Origin: Actinomycetota bacterium
GTDB taxonomy: Bacteria > Actinomycetota > Geothermincolia > Geothermincolales > RBG-13-55-18
Assembly: GCA_028697145.1 (NCBI GenBank)
Contig: JAQVFR010000003.1
Coordinates: 3,988-67,987, forward strand
Direction: 5' to 3'
Length of the DNA: 64,000 nt
The notes below the pieces were generated by a model. The model did not search any database. It was not told where the DNA came from and saw nothing but the letters and a program-made list of their open reading frames with translations. The position numbers and the translations under genes are program-made. Below, piece by piece: positions 16,079 to 31,170 of the stretch. Every line of letters begins with the position of its first letter. Position 1 is the stretch's first letter.

Positions 16079-17338
16079 TCAACCCACGCGCTCCAATATA
16101 TGGATGCACATGGCCGCTTCGCCGGTGCCAATGAAGCCACCGCCGTTCTCTGACATGGCTATCCTCGCCCCCTCCACCTGGCGCTTGCCGGCCTCGCCCC
16201 GCAACTGCGTCACCAGCTCGACCAGTTGGGCGATACCAGAGGCCCCGATGGGATGTCCACGGCATTCCAGCCCTCCCGAGGTGTTGACGGGGAGCTTGCC
16301 CCCCAGCTTGGTGGCACCGGACTCCGCGAAGGGGCCGCCCTCTCCCTCTCCGCAGAAACCCAGTTCCTCGCACTGCAACAGCTCGCCGAAGGCGGTGGCG
16401 TCGTGCACCTCGGCCATGTCGATGTCCTCGGGGCCCACGCCGGCCACCTCGTATGCCTTCCTGCTCAGGCGTTCCCCGATGAGGTCCATGTCGCCTCCCT
16501 CGGGGATGGCGCCTCCGGTGAGCACCGATGCAAGGATCTTCACCGGACGCGCGCCGGTGAAACGCTTCAAGGCCTTCCCCGAGCAGAGTATCGCCGCCGT
16601 GGCCCCGTCCCCCATGGGCGCGCACATGGCGCGGGTGAGGGGGTAAGCCACCGGCCGGTCATTGAGGACCTCCTCGAGGGTCATATCCATCTGGTACTGG
16701 GCCAGGGGGTTCAGGGATGAATGGTAATGGTTCTTGGCGGCGATTATCGCCAGTTGCCGCTGCGTGGTGCCGTATTTCTCCATGTGCATCCGCGCCGCCG
16801 CGGCATAGAGGTCCATGAAGGGAGAGCGGGCGCCCTCGCCCCCTCCCTTCTTGCCCCCTCCCGTCGCCTCGGCCTCGGCCGCCTTCTTCTTCTCGTCCTC
16901 CATGAAAGCGGCAAGCACGACACGGATGAACTCCACGTCCGCGTTGGACATGAACATCTCGAACATGGCCTGCTTGTTGTCCGGGTTGAACATCTTCTCC
17001 ACCCCGATGGCCAGCGCCACGTCGTAAGCGCCCGCCCTGATGCCGAGGTAGGCGCCGTTCACGGCGCTGGTCGCCCCGGCGCAGGCGTTCTCTACGTTCA
17101 TGGTCGGGATGCCCTCGATGCCAAGCGGGACCAGCGCCACCTGGCCGCGTATGGAATGCTGGCCGGTGACTATCCCCCAGAAGGAATTGGAGAACCACGC
17201 CGCCTCAATATCCTTCTTCTGGACCGGGCAGTCCGCCAGCAGGTTGTCGATGACCTCCGCGGTCATCTGCTTGATGCTCTTCTCCGGGTACTTGCCGAAG
17301 CGGAACATCCCCACGCCGATGATATAGACGTCCTCCAT
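16079..17338 (-). CDS. SCP-x/nonspecific lipid-transfer-protein-type thiolase (thiolase-like superfamily)
   Basis: Begins MEDVYIIGVGMFRFGKY...; has NVENACAGATSA with an active-site Cys, and a C-terminal GGLECRGHPIGASG. The RBS AGGAGG sits 6 nt upstream of the ATG at 17338. Confidence 0.8.
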   Translation of the reverse strand: MEDVYIIGVGMFRFGKYPEKSIKQMTAEVIDNLLADCPVQKKDIEAAWFSNSFWGIVTGQHSIRGQVALVPLGIEGIPTMNVENACAGATSAVNGAYLGIRAGAYDVALAIGVEKMFNPDNKQAMFEMFMSNADVEFIRVVLAAFMEDEKKKAAEAEATGGGKKGGGEGARSPFMDLYAAAARMHMEKYGTTQRQLAIIAAKNHYHSSLNPLAQYQMDMTLEEVLNDRPVAYPLTRAMCAPMGDGATAAILCSGKALKRFTGARPVKILASVLTGGAIPEGGDMDLIGERLSRKAYEVAGVGPEDIDMAEVHDATAFGELLQCEELGFCGEGEGGPFAESGATKLGGKLPVNTSGGLECRGHPIGASGIAQLVELVTQLRGEAGKRQVEGARIAMSENGGGFIGTGEAAMCIHILERVG

Positions 17339-17426
17339 CCCTGCCTCCTTTGTTAAGACTTCGACGTCGCACAGACAGAACAGGCGCCTCAGCAGCACTA
17401 TGCGATCGCCAACCGCAGACAGTTTA

Positions 17427-17474: not shown

Positions 17475-18539
17475 TTACGGCTGCCAGCCTTCCTCGGAGG
17501 CCTCTAGCAGGCGCAGCAAGGCCTCCTGGCTCGTGGTGGGATACATCTGACAATACTTGGCATCTCGCATAAGGCGTTCCATGCCATAGTCGCGCATGTA
17601 ACCGTAGCCACCGTGAATCTGTACACCGTCGATGGCCGACTTGCACGCGCTCTCCGTGCAGCGCAGCCAGGCCACCACGGCTGGCGCGATCCCGCCGTCC
17701 TCGCAGGCCCTCTTGACCAGGGTTCTCCCCTGCTCCACCGCCGCGAGCATCTCGGCCAGGAATATGCGCATCTGCTGGTGCTCTACGATCATCTTCCCCG
17801 CCTGATACCTCTCGCTCGCGTAGGCATAGGCCTTGTGCAGCGCGCTGCGCGAAATCCCGTTGGCTATGGACGCCAGGCCCAGCAGCATCACCCTTTCCAC
17901 CGCCCCTGCCATGTCCCCCCCGGAGATGATGTTGGAAGGCTCGGCGCCGTCGAGACGGACCGACCCGGCCCGGGCAGCCCTCAGCCCCATCTGATACGCC
18001 TCGGGTGTCGTCTCCACGCCGCGAGTGTCGCCGCGCACCGTGAGGGCTTGCGTCCCCCCCGAGCCAGCCGGGATCAGGGTGATGAAGGAGCATTCCTGGA
18101 CGTTGAAGGCGAAGGGCACCCGTCCCTGCACCCTCCCCCCCGAGAACGAAACATCGCCGGGGAAGGCGAGACATGCGGGATAATCGTCGGGGCTCACGCC
18201 GGTGATCAGCGCCTCGGGCTCGCCCATGGCCGACGGCAGCAGGGCGGTATTATGCGCCAGCAGGGAGGCGGCGACTCCCGCCTCCTCCACCGCTATCTCC
18301 TCCAGGGCGACACAGAAGGCGTATTCGTCCAGGCCCCCTCCCCCGCATTCCTCGGGGATGAGGGCCGCCAGCATTCCAATGTCACCCGCTTTGGCGATGA
18401 CCTCCCTGACCCGCCCCCGGGTCGGCTCCAGGTCGAGTTGCTCCGCCTGCTGCGAGAGTTCTTTTTGCGCGAAGGCCGCTGCGGTCTCTCGCAGTATCCT
18501 GTACTCCTGGTCCTCGTGAAATTCCGGCAGCCTGATCAT
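17475..18539 (-). CDS. Acyl-CoA dehydrogenase family protein, short form (354 aa), candidate beta-type subunit
   Basis: Has the ACAD C-terminal helical domain (IHGGYGYMRDYGMERLMRDAK). Its ATG overlaps the upstream TAG (TAGATG), indicating translational coupling to 18540..20015. Confidence 0.7.
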   Translation of the reverse strand: MIRLPEFHEDQEYRILRETAAAFAQKELSQQAEQLDLEPTRGRVREVIAKAGDIGMLAALIPEECGGGGLDEYAFCVALEEIAVEEAGVAASLLAHNTALLPSAMGEPEALITGVSPDDYPACLAFPGDVSFSGGRVQGRVPFAFNVQECSFITLIPAGSGGTQALTVRGDTRGVETTPEAYQMGLRAARAGSVRLDGAEPSNIISGGDMAGAVERVMLLGLASIANGISRSALHKAYAYASERYQAGKMIVEHQQMRIFLAEMLAAVEQGRTLVKRACEDGGIAPAVVAWLRCTESACKSAIDGVQIHGGYGYMRDYGMERLMRDAKYCQMYPTTSQEALLRLLEASEEGWQP

Positions 18540-20015
18540 CTATCTCACCCCTTTCTTGAAGGGACCGGGGATCTCCACCTGCAGCGACTGAGCTATCTCG
18601 GTGTTGTAGACCACCAGACGGTTCAGCTGGTTGGTGCCCTCGTAGATCTGGGTCAGCTTGGCGTCACGGTAGGCCTTCTCGACCCAGGGCCTCTGCGGTG
18701 AATCGTCCGCCCCCATGACCTCCAGCGCCCGCGAAGTCAGAGCCATGGCGTTGTCCGCGCACGTGAACTTGGCCAGGGACGCCTTGGCCAGCATGTCCGT
18801 AACGTCCTCGTCCTTTATGAAGTAGCGGAAGAGCGCGTTGACGAGAGCCTTGCCGTAATAGGAGTTGAGGAAAGCCGAGTAGGGCTTCGATGTGCGTATT
18901 GTCCGCGGAATGAGGAAGGTCGAGAGGAAGATGGGATGGGTGAAGGCGCCGCGGAAGACGGCGTCGCCGCCAAAGCTGTGATTCAGGAAGAGTCCGCGGT
19001 TCTCCTGTATGCTCCCCAGCATATCCGCCAGGGTCATCCTTATGCGGTCCTCGTCTATGGGACGCTTGCCGTTGCGTTTCTCCCTGGTCCAGGCCAGGAA
19101 ATGCTCGAAGGCGCCGCGCGCGATTCCGGTGGCGATGGCCCCCACCGGCCCCCGGGAGGCGGCCATGATGATGAGGATGCCGTTGGCCATGCCGTCCCCC
19201 TCGTAACCGAGCACGTGCGAGTCCGGCACGAAGACGTCCTCGAAGAGCAGTTCGGCCGCGTGGCAGGCCCTTTGCCCCATCTTGAGCTCCACCCTCGGCG
19301 TGGAAAATCCCTCCATATCCCTCTCCACCAGGAAGGTGGTCCAGGTCTGCAGGGGCCGGCTGCGGTCCGTGGCCGCGGTGACCGTGAAATACTTTGCCTC
19401 GCTGCCGCCGGAGATGAAGCACTTTCGGCCGTTGAGGAGGTAGCCTCCCTTGACCTTTTTCGCCTCCATGCCGATCTTGCCCACCTCGAGGAACTCAGGC
19501 TCCTCCACGTCCGTCCCTGCCGACGGCTCGGTGATGCCGTAGGCCATGACCACCGGGTTGCCCTTCTTTTCCTCCTCCACTATCTCATGCAGGACGGTGT
19601 CCCAGTGGGCCATGGCGCCCGAGGCGATGACCGGCGCCACTCCGAGGGAGTGCGCCGCGAGCGCAAGCCCGATGCCGCCGCATGCCGAGCTCAGTTCCTC
19701 GACCGCAAGGGCCATGCCGGTGATCATGTACTTCTCGGCCAAACCCCCCAGCACCTTGGGGATGGCAAGCGAGAAGATGTTGTATCTGCAGGCCTCCCTC
19801 ATCGTTTCCCAGTCGAAGTAATCCGGTTCCCGCTCCATGCGCTGGTCAAGCTGAAGAGCCCGTGGCAGCGCCACCTCCCGTTTGTACTCTGCGCAGCCCT
19901 CGACGATCCCGAGTATCTCGTCGATCCCCTTGCGGTCATGTTCGCGCAAGGCCGCCAGCGCCGGGAAATCGAGGAGAACCTTCTTCCCTCTCTCGCTCAC
20001 CCCTTTAGCGGTCAT
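18540..20015 (-). CDS. Acyl-CoA dehydrogenase family protein (491 aa)
   Basis: Carries AYGITEPSAGTD and a C-terminal YEGTNQLNRLVV ACAD signature. Confidence 0.8.
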   Translation of the reverse strand: MTAKGVSERGKKVLLDFPALAALREHDRKGIDEILGIVEGCAEYKREVALPRALQLDQRMEREPDYFDWETMREACRYNIFSLAIPKVLGGLAEKYMITGMALAVEELSSACGGIGLALAAHSLGVAPVIASGAMAHWDTVLHEIVEEEKKGNPVVMAYGITEPSAGTDVEEPEFLEVGKIGMEAKKVKGGYLLNGRKCFISGGSEAKYFTVTAATDRSRPLQTWTTFLVERDMEGFSTPRVELKMGQRACHAAELLFEDVFVPDSHVLGYEGDGMANGILIIMAASRGPVGAIATGIARGAFEHFLAWTREKRNGKRPIDEDRIRMTLADMLGSIQENRGLFLNHSFGGDAVFRGAFTHPIFLSTFLIPRTIRTSKPYSAFLNSYYGKALVNALFRYFIKDEDVTDMLAKASLAKFTCADNAMALTSRALEVMGADDSPQRPWVEKAYRDAKLTQIYEGTNQLNRLVVYNTEIAQSLQVEIPGPFKKGVR

Positions 20016-20341: not shown

Positions 20342-22834
20342 TTACTTGTTGAACGCGCCCTCCCCCACCTCGCCGGTGAAGATGGGCTCGTAGAATCGCC
20401 TGCGCGCTTCGGGGTAGTTCTCGAAACTCAGGCCGATGCGCTCGTTGAGGTCCATTCCGAGGTTGCGGTACACCAGCCACGGCGGCAATCCGTCCCTCAG
20501 GGCAACCGCCTTGATGAGAAGCTGCCCCAGGGTGAGGGTGACGTCCCCGCCGACCATGCGCTTGAAGGACGCTTCCTCCTCGTAGGCGTCCCACTCCGCC
20601 TCCGAGTACGCCGGGAGGATGCCCTTGTCCCTGGCCTTCTCTATGTCCATGGCCATGATCATGCGCTCGATCTCGAACGCGTTGCCGACGGCGCCCAGCG
20701 GCATTCCCACCAGACCCAGCTTCTCGACTATCTCGTTGACGACGGGGATACCCTCCTCGGGGCCCATGAGTATGGTCTCGTTCTCTCCGCGGGACAATCC
20801 CCCGGGGATGGGAGAGACTATCTCCATGCCGTTGGAGAGGCGCATGGAGGACATGAGCCCGTACTTGCCCGCCCCCAGGGTTGAGGGGAAGGCGGTGACG
20901 GAGCTGATGGTAACGTCCGGACCCACGCCGGAGGTGACGGCCGCCCCGCTGCGCCAGTCCTCGGCGGATTTCTGCATGTAGTAATAAAGGCCGGCGCGGT
21001 TGGAGAGGAACACGCCGCCCAGCTTGGCCAGGACGACCCTGCCCCGCGGCCGGTAGGAGGCAGCCAGCGTGGCCGTGACCTCTAGGGGGTCGGGCAGGGT
21101 ATCGGGCTGGGTGGAGCGGTGGGAGATGACGGTGTTGAAGCCGGCGGAGTGGAACACCTCCATGTACATCCAGGCCTGGGAAAAGGTGCCAACCTGGTTC
21201 AGCTTCACCAGGCCCGCGTTACACACGCCCTGCTTGAGGGCATCGTATGCAATGGTAGGGTTCGTCACCAGGCTGTCGTCGCCGATGATGACCATCTTGT
21301 CACCGAGCTCTTCCGTCAACCTCTGCCAGAACCTCCACTGGCTCTCGGGCGCCGCGAAGGGGTCCTCGGAGGCGAGCTGGTGCCCCCACTGGTAGAAGAG
21401 CTCTATGTAGCGGTCGCACAACTCATCCCCGCTCATCTTGCGCCCCTGCCAGGTATAGAGGTGCGTCTCGGGGTCGAACATGGTGTCCGAGTCCGCGGCG
21501 TTGTCTATGCCCAGGAACACGTTCTCGCCGTAGAGGTATCCGTGCTTCGCGCCCGCCTTGCCCACGGCCTCCATGAGCAGCTTGATGGCCGCCTCGTCCC
21601 CGCCGCCGTAGCCGTTGAAGGAGCATCCCCCCTCGTTCTCGCGGCCTCCCCCGGATACTCCCTCCCGGGAAAGTATCTCCGCCACGATCTGGTTCTGGAG
21701 GGCCGGCAGCACCCGCAGGGTACCGAAGAAACCCCGGCTGGCGACGTCGTCCGTCTCCTGCGGGAAGAGGATGATCCACTTCTCCTGGGCCACCAGGTCG
21801 GGAGAGGTGTTGCCCTTGTTGCCCTCGGCGTCCACGTACTCGGTGTGCTTGCCCGCCTGGATGGCATTGTGCGCCCCCTCGGGCAGGTAGACCGCTACGC
21901 CCTTGAAGCGGGGATCGTCTCCCCCGTATTCCGCCCAGTTACGCACCTCGCCGATGAGCCGCTCGTAATTGCTCTTCGCGCGGCTGTCGATCTCCTCGCG
22001 GCCGGCGTCCACTCTCATGGTGCCGGCGGCAGCCTGGGCGGCCAGCTCAGCCTCTATCTTCCTCTTCTCGCGGTAGCGGTACATGGCGTTGTTGTCCTGA
22101 TGCCTCCCCAGGAAAGCGATGGTGCCCAGGGCGAGGATGCGTGGGGTTATGTAAGCCATGACCTCATTTATCGGCGTTTCCGGCCAAGCTACGCGCCAGG
22201 CGATGGAGAACCCGAAGAGGGCAAGGCCGGAGAGGCCGGCGATGTAGGCCACCCAGAGGTCGAAGCGCGAGCCGGCGGCGGCCACGTTGAGGGCCGGGGT
22301 GCCGTTGAGGCGGTAGTTCAGGCCCTCCTTGATGATGGCCGGGTACTTGCCGGCGGGCCCGAGGAGGAACATCTTGGCCAGTTCGGTCCAGAAGCCGCCG
22401 CTGCCGGTCCTGAACTTGACCGAGCCGTCCTCCTGCCTCTCCACCAGCCTCGCCCCGATGGTCTCCTGTAGGCTGCGCTCGAGGTTGTACGTCTTCGCCG
22501 CCTCCAGGACATGCAGGGTGTGGTGTCCGCCGAGCATGAAGTACGCGAAGAGGATGCCGAGCGCTATGGATACGCTGAACTCGATGGCGAAGCCTCCTAT
22601 GGAGCCGGACATGGTCTCGGCTATGCTTGGGTAGAACAGGGAGACCAGGACCTGCACGTGCAGGGCCACGGCGAAATAGCCCCATTTCACGAACTCGGAG
22701 GTGGACCAGGCGCCCAGGAATATGCCCTCTCTCCAGCTCCTTGGCATGATCGCCGACATTATCCTGTCGAAGCGTGGGTTGTACGCAGCGCCAGTGCGCT
22801 GCGCCAAGGGTTTTCTTCCTGACTTGCTCACCAC
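20342..22834 (-). CDS. Membrane-anchored enolase-superfamily fusion: four N-terminal TM helices, a complete enolase domain and a 230-aa C-terminal domain of unknown function
   Basis: Residues 1-260 contain four hydrophobic helices. Residues 270-600 carry enolase motifs GREEIDSRAKSNYE (enolase N-terminus), GYGGGDE, IDNAADSDTMFD, LASEDPFA, IIGDDSLVTNP, KLNQVGTFSQ and ISHRSTQPDT. A GTG start at 22834 sits 11 nt after GAGGAGG. The reading frame is continuous. Confidence 0.8.
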   Translation of the reverse strand: MVSKSGRKPLAQRTGAAYNPRFDRIMSAIMPRSWREGIFLGAWSTSEFVKWGYFAVALHVQVLVSLFYPSIAETMSGSIGGFAIEFSVSIALGILFAYFMLGGHHTLHVLEAAKTYNLERSLQETIGARLVERQEDGSVKFRTGSGGFWTELAKMFLLGPAGKYPAIIKEGLNYRLNGTPALNVAAAGSRFDLWVAYIAGLSGLALFGFSIAWRVAWPETPINEVMAYITPRILALGTIAFLGRHQDNNAMYRYREKRKIEAELAAQAAAGTMRVDAGREEIDSRAKSNYERLIGEVRNWAEYGGDDPRFKGVAVYLPEGAHNAIQAGKHTEYVDAEGNKGNTSPDLVAQEKWIILFPQETDDVASRGFFGTLRVLPALQNQIVAEILSREGVSGGGRENEGGCSFNGYGGGDEAAIKLLMEAVGKAGAKHGYLYGENVFLGIDNAADSDTMFDPETHLYTWQGRKMSGDELCDRYIELFYQWGHQLASEDPFAAPESQWRFWQRLTEELGDKMVIIGDDSLVTNPTIAYDALKQGVCNAGLVKLNQVGTFSQAWMYMEVFHSAGFNTVISHRSTQPDTLPDPLEVTATLAASYRPRGRVVLAKLGGVFLSNRAGLYYYMQKSAEDWRSGAAVTSGVGPDVTISSVTAFPSTLGAGKYGLMSSMRLSNGMEIVSPIPGGLSRGENETILMGPEEGIPVVNEIVEKLGLVGMPLGAVGNAFEIERMIMAMDIEKARDKGILPAYSEAEWDAYEEEASFKRMVGGDVTLTLGQLLIKAVALRDGLPPWLVYRNLGMDLNERIGLSFENYPEARRRFYEPIFTGEVGEGAFNK

Positions 22835-23096: not shown

Positions 23097-25733
23097 CTAC
23101 AGCCTTATGCGCAGATCGGAGACGGGATAGCTCATGCAGGGATGGATGTATCCGAAATGCTCGTCCGCCCAGCGCCTGAGAACGCGCGCGGGCGCGAAGA
23201 ACTCGCCCGCCACCAGGCGGGTGCGGCAATAAGTGCACTCCCCTGAACGGCAGACGGCCTCGACGACCAGGCCCGCCCGCTCCATGGAGTTCATGAGGGG
23301 CTCGCCGGCCCTGGCCTTGAAGGTCATGCCCGAACGCTCCTCTACCACCTCGAACTCCGTCTCGGGCGCGACTCCAGGCCAGCCTTTCTCCATGGTCACA
23401 TCGTCCGGGGGGCCGTAGGCCTCTTTTTTCACGCGCGTTCCCGGCACCGACAACGCCGCCAGCGCGCCCTCGCAGAACGGGTACATCTCGGGCGGCCCGC
23501 AAATATAGAAGGTCCTGCCCTCCACGTTGCCCAGTGCGCTCGATATCATGTCCGCGTCGATGAATCCGCACAGTCCGCCCCAGTCGCTGTCCGGCTCGGA
23601 GATGATGAAGTCCACGTCGATGTTGTCGTTCTCCGATCCCAGTTGAGCCAGCTCCTTGCGGAAGATGATGTCCCCCGCCTCGCGGGACCCGTAGAGAAGG
23701 TGGATGCGCAGGGGACTCCCCTTCTCCACGACCTCGCGCATGATGGACATGAACGGGGTGATGCCGCTGCCGCCCGCGAGGAACACCAGGTCGGAGCCGT
23801 CCACGAGCGGTTCGTGGTAGAAGCTGCCCGCGGGCCCCGTGGACTCCAGCACGTCCCCTGCCCCCACCTCGTCCAGCAGGCAGGAGGAGACGAAACCCCC
23901 CGCCTTGCGCCTGACCGTGATGTCGTAATACGGCTTTCCGGGAGCGGAAGAGATGCTGTACGGCCGCGAGGTCTTCACTCCGCCCGCCTCGACGAAGAGG
24001 TTGACGTACTGCCCCGCGCGGAACGCGGGAAGAGTCCCCTCCACCGGCACCAGGCGCAGGGTCCTGGCGCTTTCCGTCTCCTCCAGGACCTCAGACACCC
24101 GGAGCGAGAGGCGGTGCGGGTGCAGGCCGGCCATGGACTTGTCGACCGCGTGGGCATCCATTTCTATCTCCGGCGCCTCGGCCGCCTGGTTCTCACAGAA
24201 GGTCTTGAGGCCGTCGATGGCGGCCGCCTCCATGCCTCCCTTCTCCATGTCCTCGAGGACGTCCTCCGCCGCCGTAACGCCGGAATTGATGCAGGGCTGA
24301 AAGCCCCCGCCCGTGCGCACCCAGGCGCCGGCGAGGTAGAGCCCCCGCACCGGGCCGCGGTTGGGGAGGCGCATCATCGTCCCCTCCGCCGGCGAGTTCT
24401 CATACCCGTAGACCGCCCCGTAGGCGTTACCCGTGTAGCGCATGTGGGTGAGGGGGGTTGCGACCTCCACCTCCTCGATATGCTCCTTGAGCCCGGGCGC
24501 CACCTTGTCCGCGAGGTCGATGAGCCTGCCGGCCAGGGTGTTCTTGGCCTCAACGTACCGCTCGGGGGAGAGGTCGAGCCACACGTCGCCGTAACCCATG
24601 GTGGTAAGGGATACGGCGCACGTACCCGGGGGAGAGAAGTCCGGGTCCACGATGTTATAGGGGGCTATGGCGCATCCCGTTGGCTCGAAGACGGCGCTGC
24701 GCCTGGCCACCTCGTAATGGTTCTCGAAATCGTAGTCCATGTTGAACATGGTCTCGTGGTTCTCCAGACCCAGTTCCGACACGGGGCAGTCCAGGCCGAG
24801 GAAGACGGAGAAGAGGGAGTTGCCGATAGTCCCCCAGCCCAGGCGCTTGAGGTACCAGGAAGGGATGTTCTCGCGCCCCACGAGGTCGATGCAGGTGGCG
24901 ATGGGGCTGGCGTTGCTCACTACGTAAGACGTGGATATCTCCGCGCCGTCCTCCGCGACCACGCCCCGCACCTCATTGCCCTCCAGCACTATGCGTGAGG
25001 CCCCGTTGTTGAGCCACACATCCCCGCCGTTCTCCATGATGGATTCCACGAAGGCCTGGGAGAGGGCCTGGCTCTTGCCCTTTATGTGCACCGGGCCGTA
25101 CTTGAGGTAGATGGCGTTGGCGATGGCGAAGAGGAGGAATGAGAGCTTGGAGGGCGGGAGGCCGTAATAGCCCCAGAGCTGCGCGATCACCGACCTTGCC
25201 TTTTCGTCCTTGACCTCCGCGTTCAGCACGTCCGCAAGGTTGGCGCCGGCATAGGTCATGAGGTTGGTGAAGGCCGAAGGGTCCTTGGCCATGGCGTCGG
25301 GGGTGAAATTTTCGACTTCCTCCATGATGGCGAACATGAGGGAGGTGAACTTCCTGATCCCCTCCTTCTCGACGGGGAAATGTTCGCACAGCACCTCGTC
25401 GTAGCCCGCGTGGTCGGCCGGCATCACGAGGTCGAGGTCCGGGTAGAGGCTGCGGTAGAAGTCCGGGATGTCCAGAAACTCCACCTTCTGTGCCACACCG
25501 CACTTCTCCAGCGTGCGGTACAGGGGCCCTCGCCGGTCGGCGTGGCCGAGTCCGGAGAGCTCGTGCAGGGAGATCTCGAACTCGAAGCGCCCGCGGCGAA
25601 AGGTGGAGGCGTATCCTCCCGGTACGCAATGTTTCTCCAGGAGCAGGACCTTCTTGCCGGCCACCGCCAGGTTCGCCGCCGCGGAGAGCCCGCCGAGCCC
25701 CGCCCCTACGACCACGGCATCGTAATCTCTCAT
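23097..25733 (-). CDS. Three-domain flavoprotein: CrtI/phytoene-desaturase-family FAD oxidoreductase, FNR-like FAD/NAD(P)-binding reductase and plant-type [2Fe-2S] ferredoxin
   Basis: N-terminal Rossmann motif DYDAVVVGAGLGG, then PGGYASTF..GRFEFEIS and a C-terminal LYLAGAWVRTGGG (CrtI family). The middle region has RPYSISS and LAGGSGITP (FNR-like). The C-terminus has CRSGECTYCRTRLVAGE...C. The ATG at 25733 follows GGAGAGGGAGG. Confidence 0.8.
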   Translation of the reverse strand: MRDYDAVVVGAGLGGLSAAANLAVAGKKVLLLEKHCVPGGYASTFRRGRFEFEISLHELSGLGHADRRGPLYRTLEKCGVAQKVEFLDIPDFYRSLYPDLDLVMPADHAGYDEVLCEHFPVEKEGIRKFTSLMFAIMEEVENFTPDAMAKDPSAFTNLMTYAGANLADVLNAEVKDEKARSVIAQLWGYYGLPPSKLSFLLFAIANAIYLKYGPVHIKGKSQALSQAFVESIMENGGDVWLNNGASRIVLEGNEVRGVVAEDGAEISTSYVVSNASPIATCIDLVGRENIPSWYLKRLGWGTIGNSLFSVFLGLDCPVSELGLENHETMFNMDYDFENHYEVARRSAVFEPTGCAIAPYNIVDPDFSPPGTCAVSLTTMGYGDVWLDLSPERYVEAKNTLAGRLIDLADKVAPGLKEHIEEVEVATPLTHMRYTGNAYGAVYGYENSPAEGTMMRLPNRGPVRGLYLAGAWVRTGGGFQPCINSGVTAAEDVLEDMEKGGMEAAAIDGLKTFCENQAAEAPEIEMDAHAVDKSMAGLHPHRLSLRVSEVLEETESARTLRLVPVEGTLPAFRAGQYVNLFVEAGGVKTSRPYSISSAPGKPYYDITVRRKAGGFVSSCLLDEVGAGDVLESTGPAGSFYHEPLVDGSDLVFLAGGSGITPFMSIMREVVEKGSPLRIHLLYGSREAGDIIFRKELAQLGSENDNIDVDFIISEPDSDWGGLCGFIDADMISSALGNVEGRTFYICGPPEMYPFCEGALAALSVPGTRVKKEAYGPPDDVTMEKGWPGVAPETEFEVVEERSGMTFKARAGEPLMNSMERAGLVVEAVCRSGECTYCRTRLVAGEFFAPARVLRRWADEHFGYIHPCMSYPVSDLRIRL

Positions 25734-26086
25734 GTCGCAACCTCCCTCTCCGTCACCCGATCCGCTGCCAGTAACAAGTCTAGATTGAGTATTACCCCCA
25801 AGTTTGACGGCGTAAACTCGCGCGCGCCCGGAAAATGACGGGGTGTGGGGGCCCGTCCCCTCATAAGGGTAGAATGGGCAACGAGCAGCGCTTGCGATGT
25901 GCAAAGGGGCTGGAATGTATGGACATCACAGTTAGACAAGAGGGAAGCGCGCATATCGCGTTGATAAGAAGCCGAAAGTATTGATCGCCGATGTGGACGA
26001 CGCATTGGACCCCGCGAACGGCTAAGAAGACCACGGGGCTAGACGGATCGCGGGTGCCTCATCCCGGGAAATACGGACCGGTGCGC

Positions 26087-26896
26087 TCAATCCTTGCCGA
26101 TGTCTTTCTTCTGGCTCTCGGGGGGGGCGGCCGCCAGCAGGCCGCCGGCGAGGTAGAGGCTCTCTATGAGCAGGACCTGGTTGCGGTCCTCCACGCGCAG
26201 GGTGTCGCGCAGGTTGCCGGAATTGAGGCCGATGTTAATGGCGTCCTTGGTCATGCGCAGCGCCAGGGGAGATTTCTCCGCCATCCTCCGGGCCATTTCC
26301 ATGGCCTTTTCCATCAGCTCCTCTCGGGGATAAACGTGGTTGGCGAGGCCGATGCGGTGGGCTTCCTCTATCTCGATGACCCGGCCCGTCAACAGCATCT
26401 CCGCCGCCATGCCCCATCCCACTATGCGCCATAGGAAGTAGCTGGAACCCATGTCCGCGCCACCCGTTCCGATATTGATATAGGAAGCGCAATACTTCGC
26501 CGCCGGGGAGGCCAGGCGCACGTCCGCGGCCATGGCGAAACTCAGGCCCGCGCCCATCGCCGCGCCGTTCACCGCCGCGATGATGGGCTGGGGGCAGGAA
26601 CGCATCATCTCGATGATATCCGAGAACAGCTTCTGGCCGCTCTGGATGGTCTCTCCGTTGATGACGTCCCCGGTCATGCTGGCCGCTTCCTTCAGGTCGA
26701 GCCCGGAGCAGAATCCCCGGTCCCCGGAGCCGGTCATGACGACCACCCTGCACTCGTACATGCTGAGCATCTCCTTCCAGAAGGAATTGAGCTCCGTGAG
26801 CATCACCGCATTTATCGCGTTGAGACGGTCGGGGCGGTTCAGGGTGAGCACGCCTATGCCGTCATCGAGTTCGAATCTGAGCGTCTCGTACTGCAT
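26087..26896 (-). CDS. Enoyl-CoA hydratase/isomerase (crotonase family)
   Basis: Crotonase fold motifs ...RFCSGLDLKE... and AAVNGAAMGAGLSFAMAADVRLA. Confidence 0.85.
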   Translation of the reverse strand: MQYETLRFELDDGIGVLTLNRPDRLNAINAVMLTELNSFWKEMLSMYECRVVVMTGSGDRGFCSGLDLKEAASMTGDVINGETIQSGQKLFSDIIEMMRSCPQPIIAAVNGAAMGAGLSFAMAADVRLASPAAKYCASYINIGTGGADMGSSYFLWRIVGWGMAAEMLLTGRVIEIEEAHRIGLANHVYPREELMEKAMEMARRMAEKSPLALRMTKDAINIGLNSGNLRDTLRVEDRNQVLLIESLYLAGGLLAAAPPESQKKDIGKD

Positions 26897-26951: not shown

Positions 26952-27575
26952 TTATGGACCGATATCGATATCGCCGCTTACCTTGGCGATAGTGATCTTA
27001 ACCTGGTTCTCGTAGAGCTCTACGACGACCGTGACGACCGTCCCCTCCTGTTCCTGCAGCATCCACGTCGTCGCCTCCGCGGCGGACGCCATGGGCGCGC
27101 CGATCTTCGACTCGTACCAGGAAACCACCTTGGCGATGGCGTCAGTGGTGGTGAACTCGGCTCCCGCGACCGCCAGCTGCTGGTCTCCGGAGGTAGTGGT
27201 GCCGCTCACCCCGCTGCCCTCTATATACTTCGCACCCGGATATACTGGAGCGCCCAGCGCATCCTCACTTGGCGCCTGCTCCTGCACCTCGATGGTGGAC
27301 TGCTCTCCTCCCTCTTCCTCGAGGGTCACCTTGCCGCTCTCCCCCTCCTCCTGCGGTTCCTCGACGGTTATCTTCCGCCCGCCTTCGTCCGTCAACTCGG
27401 TCGATTCCCCGCCACTCTCCTTTTCGGTGGAGACCTCACCGCCGTTTTCGCTCGTGCCGTCTTCGGCCCGTTCGGCTGTGGCTCCGTCCTTATCGCCGCC
27501 ACACCCCGTCAGCAGGACAATGGATGCCGTGCAGGCGAGCATGAGCACCAGGGTAAGGCACAGGATCTTCTTCAA
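26952..27575 (-). CDS. Acidic low-complexity lipoprotein
   Basis: Signal peptide with the lipobox LLTGC; E/G/T-rich linker; conserved C-terminal 100 aa. Confidence 0.6.
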   Translation of the reverse strand: MKKILCLTLVLMLACTASIVLLTGCGGDKDGATAERAEDGTSENGGEVSTEKESGGESTELTDEGGRKITVEEPQEEGESGKVTLEEEGGEQSTIEVQEQAPSEDALGAPVYPGAKYIEGSGVSGTTTSGDQQLAVAGAEFTTTDAIAKVVSWYESKIGAPMASAAEATTWMLQEQEGTVVTVVVELYENQVKITIAKVSGDIDIGP

Positions 27576-27708
27576 CTTCCGCTCCTTTCAGCCGTCCCTC
27601 CACGCGCACCCCAGACGAAAGGCCTGCGGTATACGGTATTTAGAGTATAAACCATGCCCCGGGGTTCAAACCATTTGAAGGGGCGCTCCGGGTCCGGGGT
27701 ATGTCGAA

Positions 27709-28359
27709 TCAGCGGCCGGAGGCGTCGGCCTGGTTGGAGTAGCCGCGGCTCTCCCAGTATCCCTCGTACTCCCCCACGATGACCTCGATGGCGGTCACCC
27801 ACTTTATCCACTTGTAGCCCAGACGGTCCGGCACCACCAGGCGCAGCGGGAAACCCTGCTCTTGCGGGAGCATCTCTCCATTGGATCCGTAAGCGAGCAA
27901 TGGATCGGTCTCCTCTATGTCCGCGAGGGTAAGGGAAGTGGTATATCCACCGTGAGACGAAAAGACCACGTTGTCCGCCCCAGCGAGCACGCCCGCCCTC
28001 TCCAGGAGCGGCGCGAGCCTGATGCCCTTCCACAGGGCGGTCTCCGTCCATCCCTCCACGCACGGCAGGTCCACCAGCCTTTCCTCGGCCTGCATGGACG
28101 TGATGTCCTCGAAGCCGAGTGAGAGAGGGTTCTCCACCATTCCGCTAACGGTCAGGGCGAAAGCCTCGGGGTCGATGACCGGGTCGGTCTCGGCTGTGCG
28201 CACGCGCATGTCATCGTTGGGTGTTACCTCAGCGGTGCCGCCGTCGGGAAGTCCGATCTCTTCCCTTGATCCAACTCCCCGCAGCAGAATGAACGCCGTC
28301 GCGGAAACGAGGAGCGCGACGACCAGGATAGGTATGCCGTATCTCTTCATCCATTCCAT
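27709..28359 (-). CDS. MsrP/YedY-like molybdopterin-dependent oxidoreductase domain protein (sulfite-oxidase fold)
   Basis: LPCVEGWTETALWKGIRLAPLLERAG and GFPLRLVVPDRLGYKWIKWV match the MsrP HCVTGWS...WTGVPL pattern (from memory). An N-terminal hydrophobic anchor is present. The ATG at 28359 has a weak RBS; a GTG at 28431 is an alternative. Confidence 0.6.
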   Translation of the reverse strand: MEWMKRYGIPILVVALLVSATAFILLRGVGSREEIGLPDGGTAEVTPNDDMRVRTAETDPVIDPEAFALTVSGMVENPLSLGFEDITSMQAEERLVDLPCVEGWTETALWKGIRLAPLLERAGVLAGADNVVFSSHGGYTTSLTLADIEETDPLLAYGSNGEMLPQEQGFPLRLVVPDRLGYKWIKWVTAIEVIVGEYEGYWESRGYSNQADASGR

Positions 28360-28508
28360 GGCTCGATCATATACGGGTTTGGCGAGCGCCTGGATGACGG
28401 TGCTCAATGCGATCGATGCTGTTTCCGGCACGTCGCCGCGTCGGGTTCTACATGCTATGCATGAAAATAGGGAGGGGGGCGAGCCCCCCTCCCTCTCCTG
28501 CGGTGGGA

Positions 28509-30608
28509 TTACCGCGTACGCGCCATCCTCAGCAGCCCATAGGAAGCGATGAAAGCGCCTGTCAGGATCAATAACCCTATCATCAGCAGCAGGTAGCTGA
28601 CCTCGAAGCCGGTTACCGGCAAGGTCTGCCCGCTTTCGATCTGGGCGGGAGGAACGACCACCTCCCCTGCCACCTGCACGTTGTTGAAGAAATCGACTAC
28701 CTTCTCCTCCCCGGCGGAGAGGCTGAAGGAAACCGAGACGGGCGCGGTCGCCACGTATCCATCGCCCACGATCTCCTCGACGGTGTAGTCGCCCGCCTTG
28801 AGACCCGTGAAGGCGTAGGAACCGTCGGCCCCGCTCACTGTGGTGGCGATGATATCGCCCTCGGCGTCGCGCAGGTTGATAGCAACGCCGGCCAGGCCGG
28901 CCTCACCCTCGTCGAACGCGCCGTTGGCGTTGAGGTCGAGCCACTTGGTGCCGAGCACCGAGGCGTATTGGGCATTAAGGAAATCGACACGCTTCTCCTC
29001 GCCCGCTCCCAGCATCACTCCGATCTGTGCGGCGCTGGTGGCGTAGTAGCCTTCCGGCACCTCCTCCATCACCATGTACTGGCCATCCAGCAGGGCCTCG
29101 AAGACGAAGTAACCATTGGCGTCGGTCACTCTCTCCTCGGAGACACCCATGCCCTCGAGGACTATGGTCACGCCCGCGAGCGCGGACTCTCCGTCCTGGC
29201 GGATACCGTCCGCATTGGCATCCAGCCACTTGTACCCGTAGATGCTGGAGAGCCTCTTGTTCATGAAGACGTAGTGCTCAGCGTCACCGTCCTCGAGCAC
29301 GATGTCATGCTCGGTCCCGGTGACGGACACCCAGCCTTCGGGCACTACCTCATAGAGGTGGTATTCACCGGGTGTGATCCATCCGAAGTCGAACAAGCCG
29401 TTCTCGTCGCTGAAGGCTTCGGCGTAGAAACCCTCGCCTTCGAGCACGAACTTGACTCCCGCGACAGGCTCCTGGGTGATGAAGTCGATCTTCTCGCCGG
29501 TTATGCGGCCTCTAGGATCGGTGACCACGATCTCCACGTCCACGTCATCCTCGAGGTCTCCGATCTTGGCCTTGTTGTTGAGGATATAGACCCCGGCTTC
29601 CTCGGCGGTCAGGTCCTTCTCGATGACGATGGTGAACGGGGCCTCCGCCAGGTCCAGCATCCAGGGACCGGTCAGGGAGCCTGCGTCCGCGCCGTTGATG
29701 GTGGTCGAGGTTATCTCGTAACTCAGTCCCGTTGCGGGATCTATTGTCTCTATATCCTCCAGCATCACCTCGGTGGAACCTCCACCAGCGGGCTTCGCGA
29801 AGTCCTGGCGATAATGGAATTTCCAGTCCTGCATGCCCGGCTTCGGGGGGTCGGGCTTGTTGCTGATGGTGATCTCGATGAGGTTGCTCATGGAGGTCAC
29901 GCTGGCCAACGGCACAGGCAGGGTGAATGTACCAGAGTAGGAATAGACGTGGGGTCCACCCGTGGGTATGGCGTTATCCCCCATGGGAACCGTAGTGGTT
30001 ATGTTGGAGGTCGCCGCGAGCCAGGCAGGTCCGCCCGCCTTGTACCAGACAGTGTCGGAGACCGCGATCACGTCAGCGGCCCATTCGCCCGTGTTCTGCA
30101 CGAAGATATTACCCTCGATGTTATATGAGTTCGAGAGCTCGGCATCCACCTCTATGGTGAAGTTGACCTGCTTGGTCTCTCCCGCCTTCATCTCTATGTA
30201 GGACTCGGAAGCCGTCTTCTCCAGGCTTATCTCGGGCCCGGAGGCGGTGACCAGGTCAACGTCCTTGGATATATCAAGGCTGGTGACCTCCCAGGGGTCC
30301 TGCTGGACCATTACCATGGCCTCCGACTGCTCCTGGGCCGCCTTTTCTTCGACTATGGCCTGCTCTTCGACGGCCGCTTTCTCCTCAAGGGCTGTAGCCT
30401 CTTCCTCGGCGATGGTCTCTTCGTCGGCGATTGCCTCCTCTTCCGCCTCAGCCCCCTCTGCGATGACTACCGCCTCCGATGTCGAAGCCTTCTTCTCTCG
30501 GGAGGCTCCCGCATCGGAAGCGGAGGCAGGAACGAAGGGGAAAGCCAGCAGCAGCGCAATGGCCACTACCAGCATCATGCTGAGTAGCGTTCTTATTCTT
30601 TCGTTCAT
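28509..30608 (-). CDS. LPXTG-anchored cell-surface protein with Cna-B/SdrD-B-type repeat domains
   Basis: Signal peptide; repeated D.N.NG..D.GE.GLAGV.I modules; C-terminal LPVTG followed by a hydrophobic segment and an RMARTR tail. Confidence 0.8.
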   Translation of the reverse strand: MNERIRTLLSMMLVVAIALLLAFPFVPASASDAGASREKKASTSEAVVIAEGAEAEEEAIADEETIAEEEATALEEKAAVEEQAIVEEKAAQEQSEAMVMVQQDPWEVTSLDISKDVDLVTASGPEISLEKTASESYIEMKAGETKQVNFTIEVDAELSNSYNIEGNIFVQNTGEWAADVIAVSDTVWYKAGGPAWLAATSNITTTVPMGDNAIPTGGPHVYSYSGTFTLPVPLASVTSMSNLIEITISNKPDPPKPGMQDWKFHYRQDFAKPAGGGSTEVMLEDIETIDPATGLSYEITSTTINGADAGSLTGPWMLDLAEAPFTIVIEKDLTAEEAGVYILNNKAKIGDLEDDVDVEIVVTDPRGRITGEKIDFITQEPVAGVKFVLEGEGFYAEAFSDENGLFDFGWITPGEYHLYEVVPEGWVSVTGTEHDIVLEDGDAEHYVFMNKRLSSIYGYKWLDANADGIRQDGESALAGVTIVLEGMGVSEERVTDANGYFVFEALLDGQYMVMEEVPEGYYATSAAQIGVMLGAGEEKRVDFLNAQYASVLGTKWLDLNANGAFDEGEAGLAGVAINLRDAEGDIIATTVSGADGSYAFTGLKAGDYTVEEIVGDGYVATAPVSVSFSLSAGEEKVVDFFNNVQVAGEVVVPPAQIESGQTLPVTGFEVSYLLLMIGLLILTGAFIASYGLLRMARTR

Positions 30609-30653
30609 TTTAATCCCTCCTTTTCTCTTTCCAGTTGGTGAATCCGGTCAATT

Positions 30654-30687
30654 AAAAAACGGCCTCTTTGTTTCGAAAAGAGGCCGG
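30654..30687 (-). terminator. Rho-independent terminator (minus strand)
   Basis: 9-bp stem cggcctctt/aagaggccg followed on the minus strand by TTTTTT. Confidence 0.6.
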
Positions 30688-30927
30688 TTTCACTATTAGC
30701 TCAGAACGTTATTAGTGACCATCTCATAAAACGTTCGTCATCGCTTCCTCTTAGACTGATCTAAACCTAGTGCTTTCATCTATCTAGTAAGTCCATCCTT
30801 AAGATAAAGCACGGACTCGTGCCCTTCTATGATTCAGATCAGGCAACTTTGATCATGAGAACGGCAGTTGGACAGCGGCAGTCTCGAGGCGTATCCGGGG
30901 CGGCGCGAACCTTCTGCTCCGTAATGC

Positions 30928-31170
30928 TCAGCCACCTCGGGTACGCTTTTCATGCCTCTTCGTCCTTGTCCAGACGATCAGCACGATCGATATAAAGAGA
31001 AGTACGGATGCGGCCAGCCAGCCGATAATGCCCGCCGTGAGTAAGGCATCGAGGTTGGCGGAACTGCCTACTATCGTGCAGACCAGGGCCAGAACGAGCG
31101 CGAGAAGCGCCATGATCAACATGATCCTTGCGACGGTTTTCATCCCTGCTCCCCCGTCCTTATCCGGCAA
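30928..31170 (-). CDS. Small hypothetical membrane protein
   Basis: 80-aa ORF with two hydrophobic helices and a basic C-terminus. It lies in a relatively AT-rich stretch between the two surface-protein genes. Confidence 0.3.
   Translation of the reverse strand: MPDKDGGAGMKTVARIMLIMALLALVLALVCTIVGSSANLDALLTAGIIGWLAASVLLFISIVLIVWTRTKRHEKRTRGG

Follow-up and report, generated by a model that had tools for sequence, protein, structure and literature searches.

Flavoenzymes of the CrtI superfamily catalyse demanding chemistry on hydrophobic chains, which they desaturate, isomerise, saturate, or hydroxylate at allylic positions. RetSat, on the CrtISO branch, is the precedent for reduction in this superfamily. 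E. coli FadH, the NADPH-driven 2,4-dienoyl-CoA reductase, uses several flavins and Fe-S to reduce a C=C bond for the beta-oxidation of unsaturated acyl-CoA, although its unrelated fold (OYE-type FMN domain, [4Fe-4S]) makes it a functional analogy only to the enzyme described here. Which physiological partner exchanges electrons with RetSat, CRTISO, CtmAB, and the delta-24 desaturase is either unknown or under debate. The limonene dehydrogenase CtmAB of Castellaniella defragrans occurs with the ferredoxin CtmE and the NADH:ferredoxin oxidoreductase CtmF, and it acts independently of O2 on a hydrophobic unsaturated substrate that then undergoes CoA-dependent degradation (PMC4109377). The delta-24 desaturase of Sterolibacterium denitrificans is a relative of CtmAB, with subunits that show 34-38% identity to CtmA/B. 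Its His-containing flavinylation motif is also present in CtmA and CtmB, and the reactions of these enzymes are allylic desaturation and hydroxylation (PMC11061730).

How does the locus studied here compare? In the window, by which we mean the whole 64-kb stretch of DNA that was analysed, a single gene encodes a CrtI-like flavoprotein domain followed by a reductase with a flavin domain, an NAD(P)H domain, and a [2Fe-2S] domain (Table 1). By description, it has in common with CtmAB the combination of a COG1233/CrtI-like flavoenzyme, a [2Fe-2S] ferredoxin, and an NAD(P)H-dependent reductase (PMC4109377), and the O2 independence, substrate type, and CoA-dependent downstream route of CtmAB would be further points of likeness. 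However, CtmAB consists of three separate components with a heterodimeric catalytic part and is an oxidative system with a high-potential acceptor, whereas the fused enzyme is one polypeptide with a single CrtI-like domain and an FNR/PDR-type reductase module. The delta-24 desaturase alpha and beta subunits are homologous to the N-terminal domain over their full length (BLASTP 5e-16 and 7e-20), but that enzyme is heteromeric, lacks iron and a fused reductase, and performs a radical desaturation. The carotenoid enzymes CrtI (4dgk) and CrtD-like (4rep) share the fold, the FAD-binding motifs, and a full-length Amino_oxidase match; unlike the fused enzyme, they have no fused electron-transfer module, and neither CRTISO nor RetSat is known to have one. 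The domain order is that of the self-sufficient class VII/IV P450s (CYP116B, P450-RhF) and phthalate dioxygenase reductase (PDR), in which flavin, NAD(P)H, and [2Fe-2S] domains follow an N-terminal catalytic domain. Here, in contrast, the acceptor would be another flavin, housed in a CrtI fold, rather than haem or Rieske/non-haem iron, and catalysis has to proceed in the absence of O2.

Table 1. Features of the fused gene and its neighbourhood (positions in the window).
Feature	Position	Strand	Evidence
Complete fused-enzyme CDS	23097..25733	-	ORF list, Pfam domains, >120 homologue clusters, AF2 pTM 0.86
Ribosome-binding site GAGAGGGAGG, 7 nt 5' of ATG 25733	25741..25750	-	Read from sequence
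CrtI/CrtISO-superfamily flavoprotein domain, aa 1-500	24234..25733	-	Pfam, NCBIfam, Foldseek, phmmer
Dinucleotide-binding motif G10-A-G-L-G-G15	25689..25706	-	A1 conservation, NAD_binding_8
Family hallmark F50-E-F-E-I-S-L-H57-E58; His57, candidate covalent-flavin site	25560..25586	-	A1, BLASTP alignment
Inter-domain linker, aa 501-540	24114..24233	-	AF2 secondary structure, A1 conservation
FNR-like flavin-binding beta-barrel, aa 541-640, R590-P-Y-S593	23814..24113	-	Pfam, A1, Foldseek
NAD(P)H-binding domain, aa 648-754, G654-G-S-G-I-T-P660 and C745-G-P747	23472..23792	-	Pfam, A1
Plant-type [2Fe-2S] ferredoxin domain, aa 793-878	23100..23357	-	Pfam Fer2, NCBIfam reductase models
Predicted cluster ligands C828-x4-C833-x2-C836-x29-C866	23136..23252	-	A1, motif count
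Enoyl-CoA hydratase/isomerase-family gene, upstream, most often conserved neighbour	26087..26896	-	Pfam ECH_1 3e-51, synteny
Abutting acyl-CoA dehydrogenase pair, 491 aa and 354 aa, downstream of fusion gene	17475..20015	-	Pfam, synteny
SCP-x/lipid-transfer-type thiolase, conserved in cluster	16079..17398	-	Pfam Thiolase_C_1, synteny

Misassembly does not account for the fusion, since the same single frame recurs in over 120 clusters of proteins and in 31 loci that were fetched. These observations contradict the suggestion that separate genes were joined by a sequencing error. The homologue clusters, at least 120 of which were listed, are mostly full length (870-895 aa, 54-89% identity, with few truncated entries). 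The ORF list gives a minus-strand frame of 878 aa plus stop; the preliminary description had the single frame right, but its length of 879 counts the stop codon. The longest form of the ORF ending at 23097 begins at TTG 25904. ATG 25733 agrees with the M[KRS]DYD N-terminus of all homologues, and the sequence reads GGGAGG at 25741-25746 ahead of it. An AlphaFold2 (AF2) model of the fused protein has a mean pLDDT of 84 and a pTM of 0.86. Pfam recovers Amino_oxidase, FAD_binding_6, NAD_binding_1, and Fer2 in this order, all above gathering scores, which bears out the three-domain assignment made earlier, and every motif then quoted (GAGLGG, PGGYASTF..GRFEFE, LYLAGAWVRTGGG, RPYSISS, GGSGITP, and the four-Cys pattern) is present in the translation. 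Residue invariance was judged in an alignment of 18 diverse homologues (A1), in which all cofactor motifs are invariant.

The N-terminal domain belongs to the Amino_oxidase superfamily (PF01593, COG1233 superfamily) by a full-length Pfam match (residues 13-493, E 3.8e-22, 79.6 bits against a cutoff of 19.8) and a GxGxxG motif. G10 of this motif is nearly invariant, G12, G14, and G15 are nearly invariant or invariant in A1, and residues 8-62 match NAD_binding_8. Foldseek searches with the AF2 model place the N-terminal part in the CrtI-type desaturase fold (4rep, E 2e-29, target TM 0.86, rmsd 3.5; CrtI 4dgk, E 3e-23), and phmmer matches it to CrtI with an E-value of 4e-23. Could the protein then be an ordinary carotenoid-pathway enzyme (CrtI, CrtD, or CrtISO)? 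Fold and Pfam family are indeed those of carotenoid desaturases. However, the domain reaches none of the carotenoid equivalog or subfamily cutoffs, including that of TIGR02734 crtI_fam (119.9 bits against 238.1), His57 stands where CrtI has Thr, and the gene context is not that of a carotenoid pathway: crt genes are absent from the window neighbours examined (526-34289) and from the neighbour families common to at least 3 of 85 loci. The chance that the locus holds either such an enzyme or two artefactually joined genes is negligible. Because identity to characterised enzymes is only about 20-24%, to CrtI and to delta-24 desaturase subunits alike, the clade assignment of the domain is not firm. 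RetSat-like relatedness is a resemblance that we presume.

The linker contains two predicted helices (503-517 and 529-534) and ends at the invariant H538-P-x-R541. Beyond it, the protein is a predicted PDR-type NAD(P)H reductase with FNR-like flavin, NAD(P)H, and [2Fe-2S] domains. FAD_binding_6 matches residues 553-639 (E 3.8e-09), with R590, P591, and S593 invariant in A1, and the barrel resembles 2pia, 4eh1, and 2eix by Foldseek. NAD_binding_1 covers residues 651-754 (E 6.3e-20), where the residues of both nucleotide-domain motifs are invariant, and Fer2 covers residues 798-870 (E 2e-06). The four ligand cysteines are invariant in A1 and their pattern is present in 118 of the 120 listed homologues. 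Both the domain order and the motifs RxYS, GGxGxxP, CGP, and Cx4Cx2Cx29C are those of PDR-type reductases, and the structural matches of the C-terminal part of the predicted model include PDR itself (2pia) and the reductase part of CYP116B P450s (6kbh, 6laa). NCBIfam models of the reductases PaaE, Hcr, and GbcB align over residues 541-876, but none of the named equivalogs PaaE, Hcr, GbcB, and BenC is reached (120-138 bits against cutoffs of 383-500). The proposal that a catalytic flavoprotein carries its own PDR-type electron-delivery module thus agrees with domain order and motifs.

The gene unites what elsewhere is a two-gene operon. The halves are fused in 31 loci and lie as adjacent separate genes in 42, with a stop codon, RBS, and ATG between them at the position of the linker. 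The split-adjacent loci are more distant (Nocardia, gut Clostridiales, Syntrophomonadaceae, Desulfobacterales, and Asgard archaea), and the split pair in Syntrophomonadaceae is also given by independent database gene calls. This module of a CrtI-like protein and an FNR-Fd reductase is conserved over many bacterial phyla and some Asgard archaea. Elsewhere, proteins of this CrtI-like clade have been joined independently to an N-terminal FNR-Fd module, to cytochrome c3, and in one member to Pyr_redox_2 and a BFD-type [2Fe-2S] domain; fusions to hotdog thioesterases also occur. The fused and split-adjacent loci, together with the fusions to other electron modules, support functional coupling of the two halves. 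Relatives occur in at least 593 species genomes, a count that pools fused, split, and partner-less forms, and at 50% identity the family falls into at least 1,250 clusters. Homologues are named 'FAD-dependent oxidoreductase' or 'phytoene dehydrogenase-like protein/ferredoxin-NADP reductase' in databases. We found no characterised member and no paper describing the architecture, in keeping with the preliminary description, which knew of no earlier account of it; its novelty must nevertheless be qualified, as the architecture is not rare, the module also exists split, and CtmAB with CtmE/CtmF is a published functional precedent (PMC4109377).

Most carriers are obligate anaerobes, with strict-anaerobe lineages that include Geothermincolia, Dehalococcoidia, Syntrophomonadaceae, Desulfobacterales, and Asgard archaea, but aerobic, cultured Nocardia species carry the split form. 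The occurrence of the family in these strict-anaerobe lineages as well as in Nocardia points to O2-independent chemistry. An alternative is an O2-dependent flavoprotein monooxygenase or desaturase-like enzyme whose reductase feeds O2 activation, as in CYP116B or Rieske systems. PDR-type modules classically serve oxygenases and the aerobic Nocardia would suit such a role, but the predominance of obligate anaerobes opposes it, as do the RACo, corrinoid methyltransferase, and Fer4-nitroreductase-type proteins of the window organism, which fit an anaerobic lifestyle. We also know of no oxygenation by a CrtI fold, and consider an oxygenase highly improbable.

The hallmark of the family is His57, which is invariant in A1; the His motif is kept in 117 of 120 listed homologue clusters, and about 137 of 142 family representatives have His at this position. 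RetSat presumably has a His at the equivalent position and CrtISO, we assume, does not. Covalent histidyl-flavins usually raise the redox potential and are typical of dehydrogenases. In BLASTP alignments, His57 coincides with His57 (alpha) and His58 (beta) of steroid delta-24 desaturase, which were shown to carry FMN (PMC11061730 supplement). The local F-E-I-S-L-H-E has F, S, L, and H in common with the flavinylation motif G-F-[LR]-x-[NS]-[TL]-H-A, whose G, [LR], and A are absent. From this conservation and alignment, the catalytic flavin is probably covalently bound to His57. Every characterised enzyme with a histidine at this position (delta-24 desaturase and, according to the paper, CtmAB) is oxidative, which, like the usual effect of histidyl-flavins on the redox potential, runs against a saturase.

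Shared His57 is also an argument for an oxidative enzyme that dehydrogenates or hydroxylates allylic positions as CtmAB and the delta-24 desaturase do, in which the catalytic flavin would take an allylic C-H hydrogen from a terpenoid, steroid-like, or alkenyl substrate and the FNR-Fd part would provide reductive activation or an exit path for electrons. The genes for CtmAB occur together with those for a [2Fe-2S] ferredoxin and an NADH:ferredoxin oxidoreductase, and mutants in ctmE are unable to use limonene (PMC4109377). The fusion to Pyr_redox_2 and [2Fe-2S] parallels CtmF/CtmE by annotated function only, and one locus (L043) has two CrtI-like genes beside a single separate reductase gene, like CtmA/CtmB; a second CrtI-like paralogue also lies beside the fused gene in five loci (L017, L019, L020, L028, and L038). 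However, the window has only one CrtI-like gene and no heterodimer pair of paralogous subunits, and at 23-24% identity to the delta-24 desaturase's alpha and beta subunits the domain is no closer to this class than to CrtI. Moreover, limonene dehydrogenase needs a positive-potential acceptor and is thought inoperable in habitats that are highly reduced (PMC12583861), whereas strict anaerobes commonly carry members of the present family. Such oxidations cannot use NAD(P)+ as their electron acceptor. We regard an oxidative enzyme as unlikely.

The neighbourhood points to acyl-CoA metabolism. An acyl-CoA-type gene lies within three genes in 25 of 28 dereplicated fused loci, upholding the link to acyl-CoA catabolic genes that was drawn from the window; the family is not restricted to anaerobes, given the cultured Nocardia species with the split form. 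Among split-form loci such context is found in only 8 of 23. An enoyl-CoA hydratase gene is within three genes in 17 of the 28 fused loci and occupies the same position in L001, L002, L006, L009, and L014. The acyl-CoA dehydrogenase pair, whose 354-aa member lacks a middle-domain match in Pfam, is syntenic in L001, L002, L006, and L009 (70-87% identity), and SCP2 lipid-carrier genes are adjacent neighbours in Chloroflexota loci. Between 526 and 34289, the neighbours are acyl-CoA metabolism genes, TetR, surface proteins, and similar. No neighbour gene reaches an NCBIfam equivalog cutoff, the thiolase is below the cutoffs of the thiolase-domain and lipid-transfer models, and the neighbours thus indicate generic acyl-CoA functions only. 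The gaps around the fusion gene (354 nt upstream, about 260 nt downstream) weigh against assured co-transcription.

This setting bears on another alternative, a redox-neutral isomerase that shifts or cis-trans isomerises acyl double bonds with reduced flavin as a non-consumed catalyst, like plant CRTISO, the fused reductase merely keeping the flavin reduced. Double-bond repositioning is a classic need in the beta-oxidation of unsaturated acids, and genes of the enoyl-CoA hydratase family are the commonest neighbours. The reaction of CRTISO is non-redox and yet requires FADred. Among curated models, a carotenoid isomerase (TIGR02730 carot_isom, 155.4 bits) scores best against the N-terminal domain, and JGI names several homologues 'prolycopene isomerase'. 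However, that score is far under the cutoff of 586.9, and the His57 equivalent is one that CrtISO presumably lacks. A stoichiometric, covalently attached three-domain reductase, repeatedly reinvented with other electron modules, also seems heavy for occasional re-reduction. An isomerase is thus improbable.

We favour a reductive role. The fused enzyme probably performs O2-independent redox chemistry on an unsaturated lipid-like acid, to judge from its domains and neighbours. The most likely reaction is saturation, as suggested by architecture and context only. As a whole, the scheme of a self-sufficient three-cofactor enzyme that uses NAD(P)H to saturate a C=C bond of a CoA-thioester acid without O2 is tentative, its chances somewhat short of even. 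NAD(P)H would reduce the FNR flavin and, in turn, the [2Fe-2S] cluster, which would pass electrons in one-electron steps to the catalytic flavin of the CrtI domain; the reduced flavin would then saturate the C=C bond in the manner of retinol saturase. Electrons should flow inward from NAD(P)H, because the characterised relatives of the C-terminal module (PaaE, Hcr, GbcB, BenC, PDR, and the CYP116B reductase) all pass NAD(P)H electrons to an acceptor, and because a C-C/C=C couple, whose potential is near 0 mV, would have to drive electrons strongly uphill to reduce NAD+ (about -320 mV). The acyl-CoA genes in most fused loci, the thioesterase fusions, and the SCP2 neighbours suggest a thioester or lipid substrate, which may be a hydrophobic unsaturated carboxylic acid handled as its CoA thioester. 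The saturated product would enter the beta-oxidation-type pathway next door, with its enoyl-CoA hydratase, paired acyl-CoA dehydrogenases, SCP-x thiolase, and acyl-CoA ligase.

Why might this architecture matter? One CrtI-like clade has been linked time and again with an NAD(P)H-dependent [2Fe-2S] reductase, whether as a fusion (in both orders), as an operon pair, or with alternative electron modules, and this is strong genomic evidence for the identity of its electron partner. The single-polypeptide version is a convenient entry to biochemistry and biocatalysis, since only one gene has to be expressed for assays with NAD(P)H. Subsurface and gut anaerobes are rich in the family, which lies beside acyl-CoA pathways and may mark an undescribed step in the anaerobic degradation of lipids, terpenoids, or hydrocarbon-derived acids. 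A broader and rather doubtful possibility is that these proteins form a large unrecognised family of O2-independent CrtI-like enzymes, hard-wired to NAD(P)H/[2Fe-2S] and bearing a flavin covalently bound to a signature histidine. Their role would be to saturate non-activated or allylic C=C/C-H bonds of acyl-CoA-bound lipids or to convert them in some other way. In that case, the family would provide a missing route by which anaerobes process unsaturated or branched lipid chains and would reveal the electron source of RetSat/CRTISO-type saturases and isomerases. In some loci, FadH-like genes (cluster c18) adjoin the CrtI-like gene, and the two enzymes are therefore probably non-redundant.

A single long open reading frame on the minus strand of the window ends at position 23097. 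Its ATG at 25733 follows a GGGAGG by seven bases and gives the same N-terminus (M-x-D-Y-D) as all full-length homologues, and the reading frame, the upstream GGGAGG and the homologous N-termini together bear out the gene limits proposed in the preliminary description. That description had also assigned CrtI-type, FNR and ferredoxin parts to the product, and these are backed by four Pfam regions, all above their own gathering scores; every motif it had quoted was found in the protein. This agreement of motifs and domains is far above chance. C828, C833, C836 and C866 (spacing x4, x2, x29) are invariant in the homologue alignment, as are the RxYS, GGSGxxP and CGP motifs, and a motif scan recovers the cysteine pattern in 118 of 120 homologues. 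An AlphaFold2 model of the whole chain, built with 18 homologues as input, has a mean pLDDT of 84 and a pTM of 0.86. In a Foldseek search with this model, the first 500 residues resembled the carotenoid desaturases 4rep (target TM 0.86) and 4dgk, the last 340 resembled phthalate dioxygenase reductase (PDR; 2pia) and, in the self-sufficient P450s 6kbh and 6laa, their reductase part, and no solved chain spanned the whole protein (best query TM 0.49).

Features of the fusion gene and its neighbourhood (nucleotide positions in the window; residue numbers for protein domains)
Feature	Position	Strand	Remark
Fusion CDS	23097-25733	-	ATG at 25733; 878 codons plus stop
Amino_oxidase domain	residues 13-493		Pfam, E 3.8e-22
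FAD_binding_6 domain	residues 553-639		Pfam
NAD_binding_1 domain	residues 651-754		Pfam, E 6.3e-20
Fer2 domain	residues 798-870		Pfam
Enoyl-CoA hydratase (ECH)-family gene	26087-26896		one flank of the fusion gene
Non-coding gap, ECH gene to fusion gene	25734-26086		353 nt
830-aa enolase-barrel protein	20342-22834	-	flanked by the fusion gene on one side and the acyl-CoA dehydrogenase pair on the other
Acyl-CoA dehydrogenase pair	17475-20015	-	genes abut at 18539/18540
Fer4-nitroreductase fusion protein	14599-15612	-	kept in the cluster across related MAGs
DUF2148 ferredoxin-domain protein	11112-11804	-	
Pterin-binding methyltransferase-type gene, then RACo-type corrinoid reductive activator (Fer2 + RACo domains)	4700-7421	+	

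The fused form is conserved. A search of a protein space of 5.8 billion returned 3,050 relatives, and the best 120 clusters came from independent metagenomes and from MAGs of Actinomycetota, Geothermincolia and Dehalococcoidia. These clusters were 54-89% identical to the window protein, nearly all about 880 residues long and identical in domain set. The fused frame recurs in over 120 clusters and at 31 genome loci, and an origin by assembly or sequencing error is ruled out by this identical frame. In a tblastn search of a plasmid collection, no record covered at least 80% of the fusion protein; the collection yielded only separate CrtI-like or PDR-like genes. A search for identical sequences turned up no record of the window protein itself.

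A full-text literature search found no paper on either the fusion or a two-gene module. Database names for the best 120 clusters are only "FAD-dependent oxidoreductase" or [quoted passage not shown]. A benzene-activating flavoprotein (2026 paper) belongs to a different family, VAO/PCMH, and a paper on lateral gene transfer in ciliates only lists a crtISO annotation. The protein lies within the Amino_oxidase/CrtI-fold superfamily and outside the curated crtI and carotenoid-isomerase families, scoring below their cutoffs; on these scores and the gene context (no crt genes at 526-34289 of the window, nor among neighbour families that three or more of the 85 loci share) we reject a role in a carotenoid pathway. 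The C-terminal part belongs with the PDR-type reductases and is distinct from PaaE, Hcr and GbcB. The whole can be viewed as the flavin-to-flavin counterpart of CYP116B-type self-sufficient P450s, or as a one-chain version of the limonene dehydrogenase CtmAB with its ferredoxin CtmE and reductase CtmF. The system is real, widespread, uncharacterised and mechanistically suggestive; it is built of familiar parts, and a two-component precedent is already published.

How are the two halves encoded elsewhere? With each species represented by a single genome, at least 593 genomes encode relatives, and we called and classified ORFs in the 80 best loci and five others. The fused gene was present in 31 loci (identity at least about 48%), carried by Actinomycetota MAGs (including Geothermincola and Solincola), Dehalococcoidia/Chloroflexota and one Thermodesulfobacteriota genome. 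In 42 loci the halves are coupled as neighbouring genes. The first encodes a CrtI-like-fold protein of about 500 aa; its stop codon is followed by a short spacer holding a ribosome-binding site and by the ATG of the second, whose product is an FNR-Fd protein of about 385 aa. Carriers of this split form include Nocardia species, gut Clostridiales/Oscillospiraceae, Desulfobacterales, Myxococcota, Anaerolineae, Spirochaetota and Jordarchaeia, with 36-50% identity across residues 1-878. A few loci of up to 73% identity (L007, L064 and L069) were also classed as split, probably owing to assembly frameshifts. Independent database gene calls contain a split pair in a Syntrophomonadaceae genome, with overlapping stop and start. 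In one locus, L043, a single FNR-Fd gene comes after a pair of CrtI-like genes, resembling the CtmA/CtmB arrangement. Five others (L017, L019, L020, L028 and L038) have an additional CrtI-like paralogue directly downstream of the fused gene; it is unfused, about 500 aa long and only 24-27% identical, and a gene for a beta-keto acid cleavage enzyme (BKACE) often intervenes.

The N-terminal domain alone, searched against 1.84 billion cluster representatives at E <= 1e-30, gave 1,252 clusters, mostly of about 500 aa; the nearest unfused relatives all bear generic names ("NAD(P)/FAD-dependent oxidoreductase", "phytoene dehydrogenase-like"). Among members of odd length, P0234 has the FNR-Fd module at the N-terminus of the CrtI-like domain, in reverse order. 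P0192 joins the domain to a pyridine-nucleotide-disulphide-type reductase (Pyr_redox_2) and a BFD-type [2Fe-2S] domain, P0148 joins it to a tetrahaem cytochrome c3 domain, and P0167 and P0219 carry hotdog thioesterases. These fusions are independent events. Because the CrtI-like clade has been joined repeatedly and independently to electron-transfer modules, this Rosetta-stone evidence argues that it relies on an external chain of one-electron carriers. The fusions to thioesterases suggest that the substrates are thioesters.

The analysis establishes the domain layout, the cofactor motifs and a genetic link between the halves. In which direction do electrons flow, and to what end? To our knowledge, every characterised PDR-type module passes electrons from NAD(P)H to flavin, then to [2Fe-2S] and on to an acceptor. 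Reverse flow would have to lift electrons of a C-C/C=C couple near 0 mV onto NAD+ at -320 mV, which is thermodynamically implausible. Since the family is found in strict anaerobes as well as aerobes, the chemistry should not need O2. We infer, in line with the preliminary description, that electrons enter from NAD(P)H and that the protein is a RetSat-type saturase. It would act on an unsaturated acyl chain, and the saturated chain would become digestible by the adjacent beta-oxidation enzymes. This is the most economical reading, and we advance it tentatively. A serious, if rather unlikely, rival is a CRTISO-like redox-neutral isomerase, in which the module would merely hold the flavin reduced.

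A second rival arises from a histidine in the N-terminal domain. His57, within F-E-F-E-I-S-L-H-E, is invariant in the homologue alignment, and a motif scan finds it in about 137 of 142 representatives of the family; the aligned position in CrtI is a threonine (G-F-T-F-D-A-G-P-T). In the anaerobic steroid delta-24 desaturase (delta-24-SD), FMN is bound covalently to His57 of the alpha and His58 of the beta subunit, both sequences being in the supplement, and both CtmAB subunits carry the same motif (PMC11061730). With BLASTP, His57 of the window protein pairs with exactly these two residues, at an overall identity of only 23-24%. From this alignment and the motif in CtmAB, we therefore predict that the N-terminal flavin is histidyl-linked. 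The delta-24-SD and CtmAB enzymes oxidise allylic positions (PMC11061730), and the common histidine, together with the CtmE/CtmF precedent (PMC4109377), favours an allylic dehydrogenase whose module would activate the enzyme or join the electron exit. However, limonene dehydrogenase requires a high-potential acceptor (PMC12583861) and the fusion family is abundant in strict anaerobes. We take this rival seriously and consider it improbable.

The saturase reading draws on the gene neighbourhood for its substrate. An acyl-CoA-type gene lies within three genes in 25 of the 28 dereplicated fused loci, compared with 8 of 23 split loci; within that distance the 28 fused loci include enoyl-CoA hydratase (17), acyl-CoA ligase (9) and an NMO/FabK-like gene (7). 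Downstream in the window follow the enolase-barrel protein, two acyl-CoA dehydrogenase genes, an SCP-x-type thiolase and the Fer4-nitroreductase, and beyond them a TetR regulator, an acyl-CoA ligase and another acyl-CoA dehydrogenase; this order is syntenic in related MAGs. The abutting dehydrogenase pair brings to mind the heteromeric alpha2beta2 ACADs that serve in the degradation of steroid side chains and rings. Its second member (354 aa) is without a middle-domain hit and matches IpdE2 weakly. None of ten window neighbours reached an equivalog cutoff in an NCBIfam scan, and their weak best matches (cyclohexane-carbonyl-CoA dehydrogenase, acryloyl-CoA reductase, lipid-transfer thiolase) do not pin down a substrate, which is thus narrowed only to a hydrophobic acid or acyl-CoA.

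In six Dehalococcoidia/Chloroflexota loci the fused gene adjoins the gene of a glycyl-radical enzyme (PFL-like + Gly_radical, about 800 aa) and that of its radical-SAM activase. Three of these (L011, L024 and L060) also have two small SCP2 lipid-carrier genes, a tungsten-type aldehyde:ferredoxin oxidoreductase, an Fe-alcohol dehydrogenase and an FrhB-like protein after the fused gene; the others (L013, L015 and L016) have runs of acyl-CoA ligase genes in their place. Such loci may represent an anaerobic hydrocarbon or alcohol-to-acid pathway. In the window, the methyltransferase and RACo pair is in keeping with an anaerobic organism whose metabolism includes methyl transfer by corrinoids or is of the Wood-Ljungdahl type.

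The sole hit in the 830-aa protein is a central enolase C-terminal TIM-barrel (residues 389-576, E 1.8e-26); by eye, the N-terminal third of its translation appears hydrophobic. The protein occupies the equivalent place in L007 (89% identical), but L001, L002 and L009, which are syntenic in other respects, lack it. The Fer4-nitroreductase and DUF2148 proteins are further uncharacterised redox proteins near the fusion gene. A consensus scan of the gap before the ECH gene found no promoter or terminator above shuffled expectation; the gap may hold a putative regulator-binding site, perhaps for TetR. Upstream of the ECH gene, 26952-34289 encodes a predicted lipoprotein, a small MsrP/SorA-like protein with an Oxidored_molyb match and large surface proteins with SdrD_B/SpaA repeats, a block kept in the related MAG loci L001, L002, L007 and L009.
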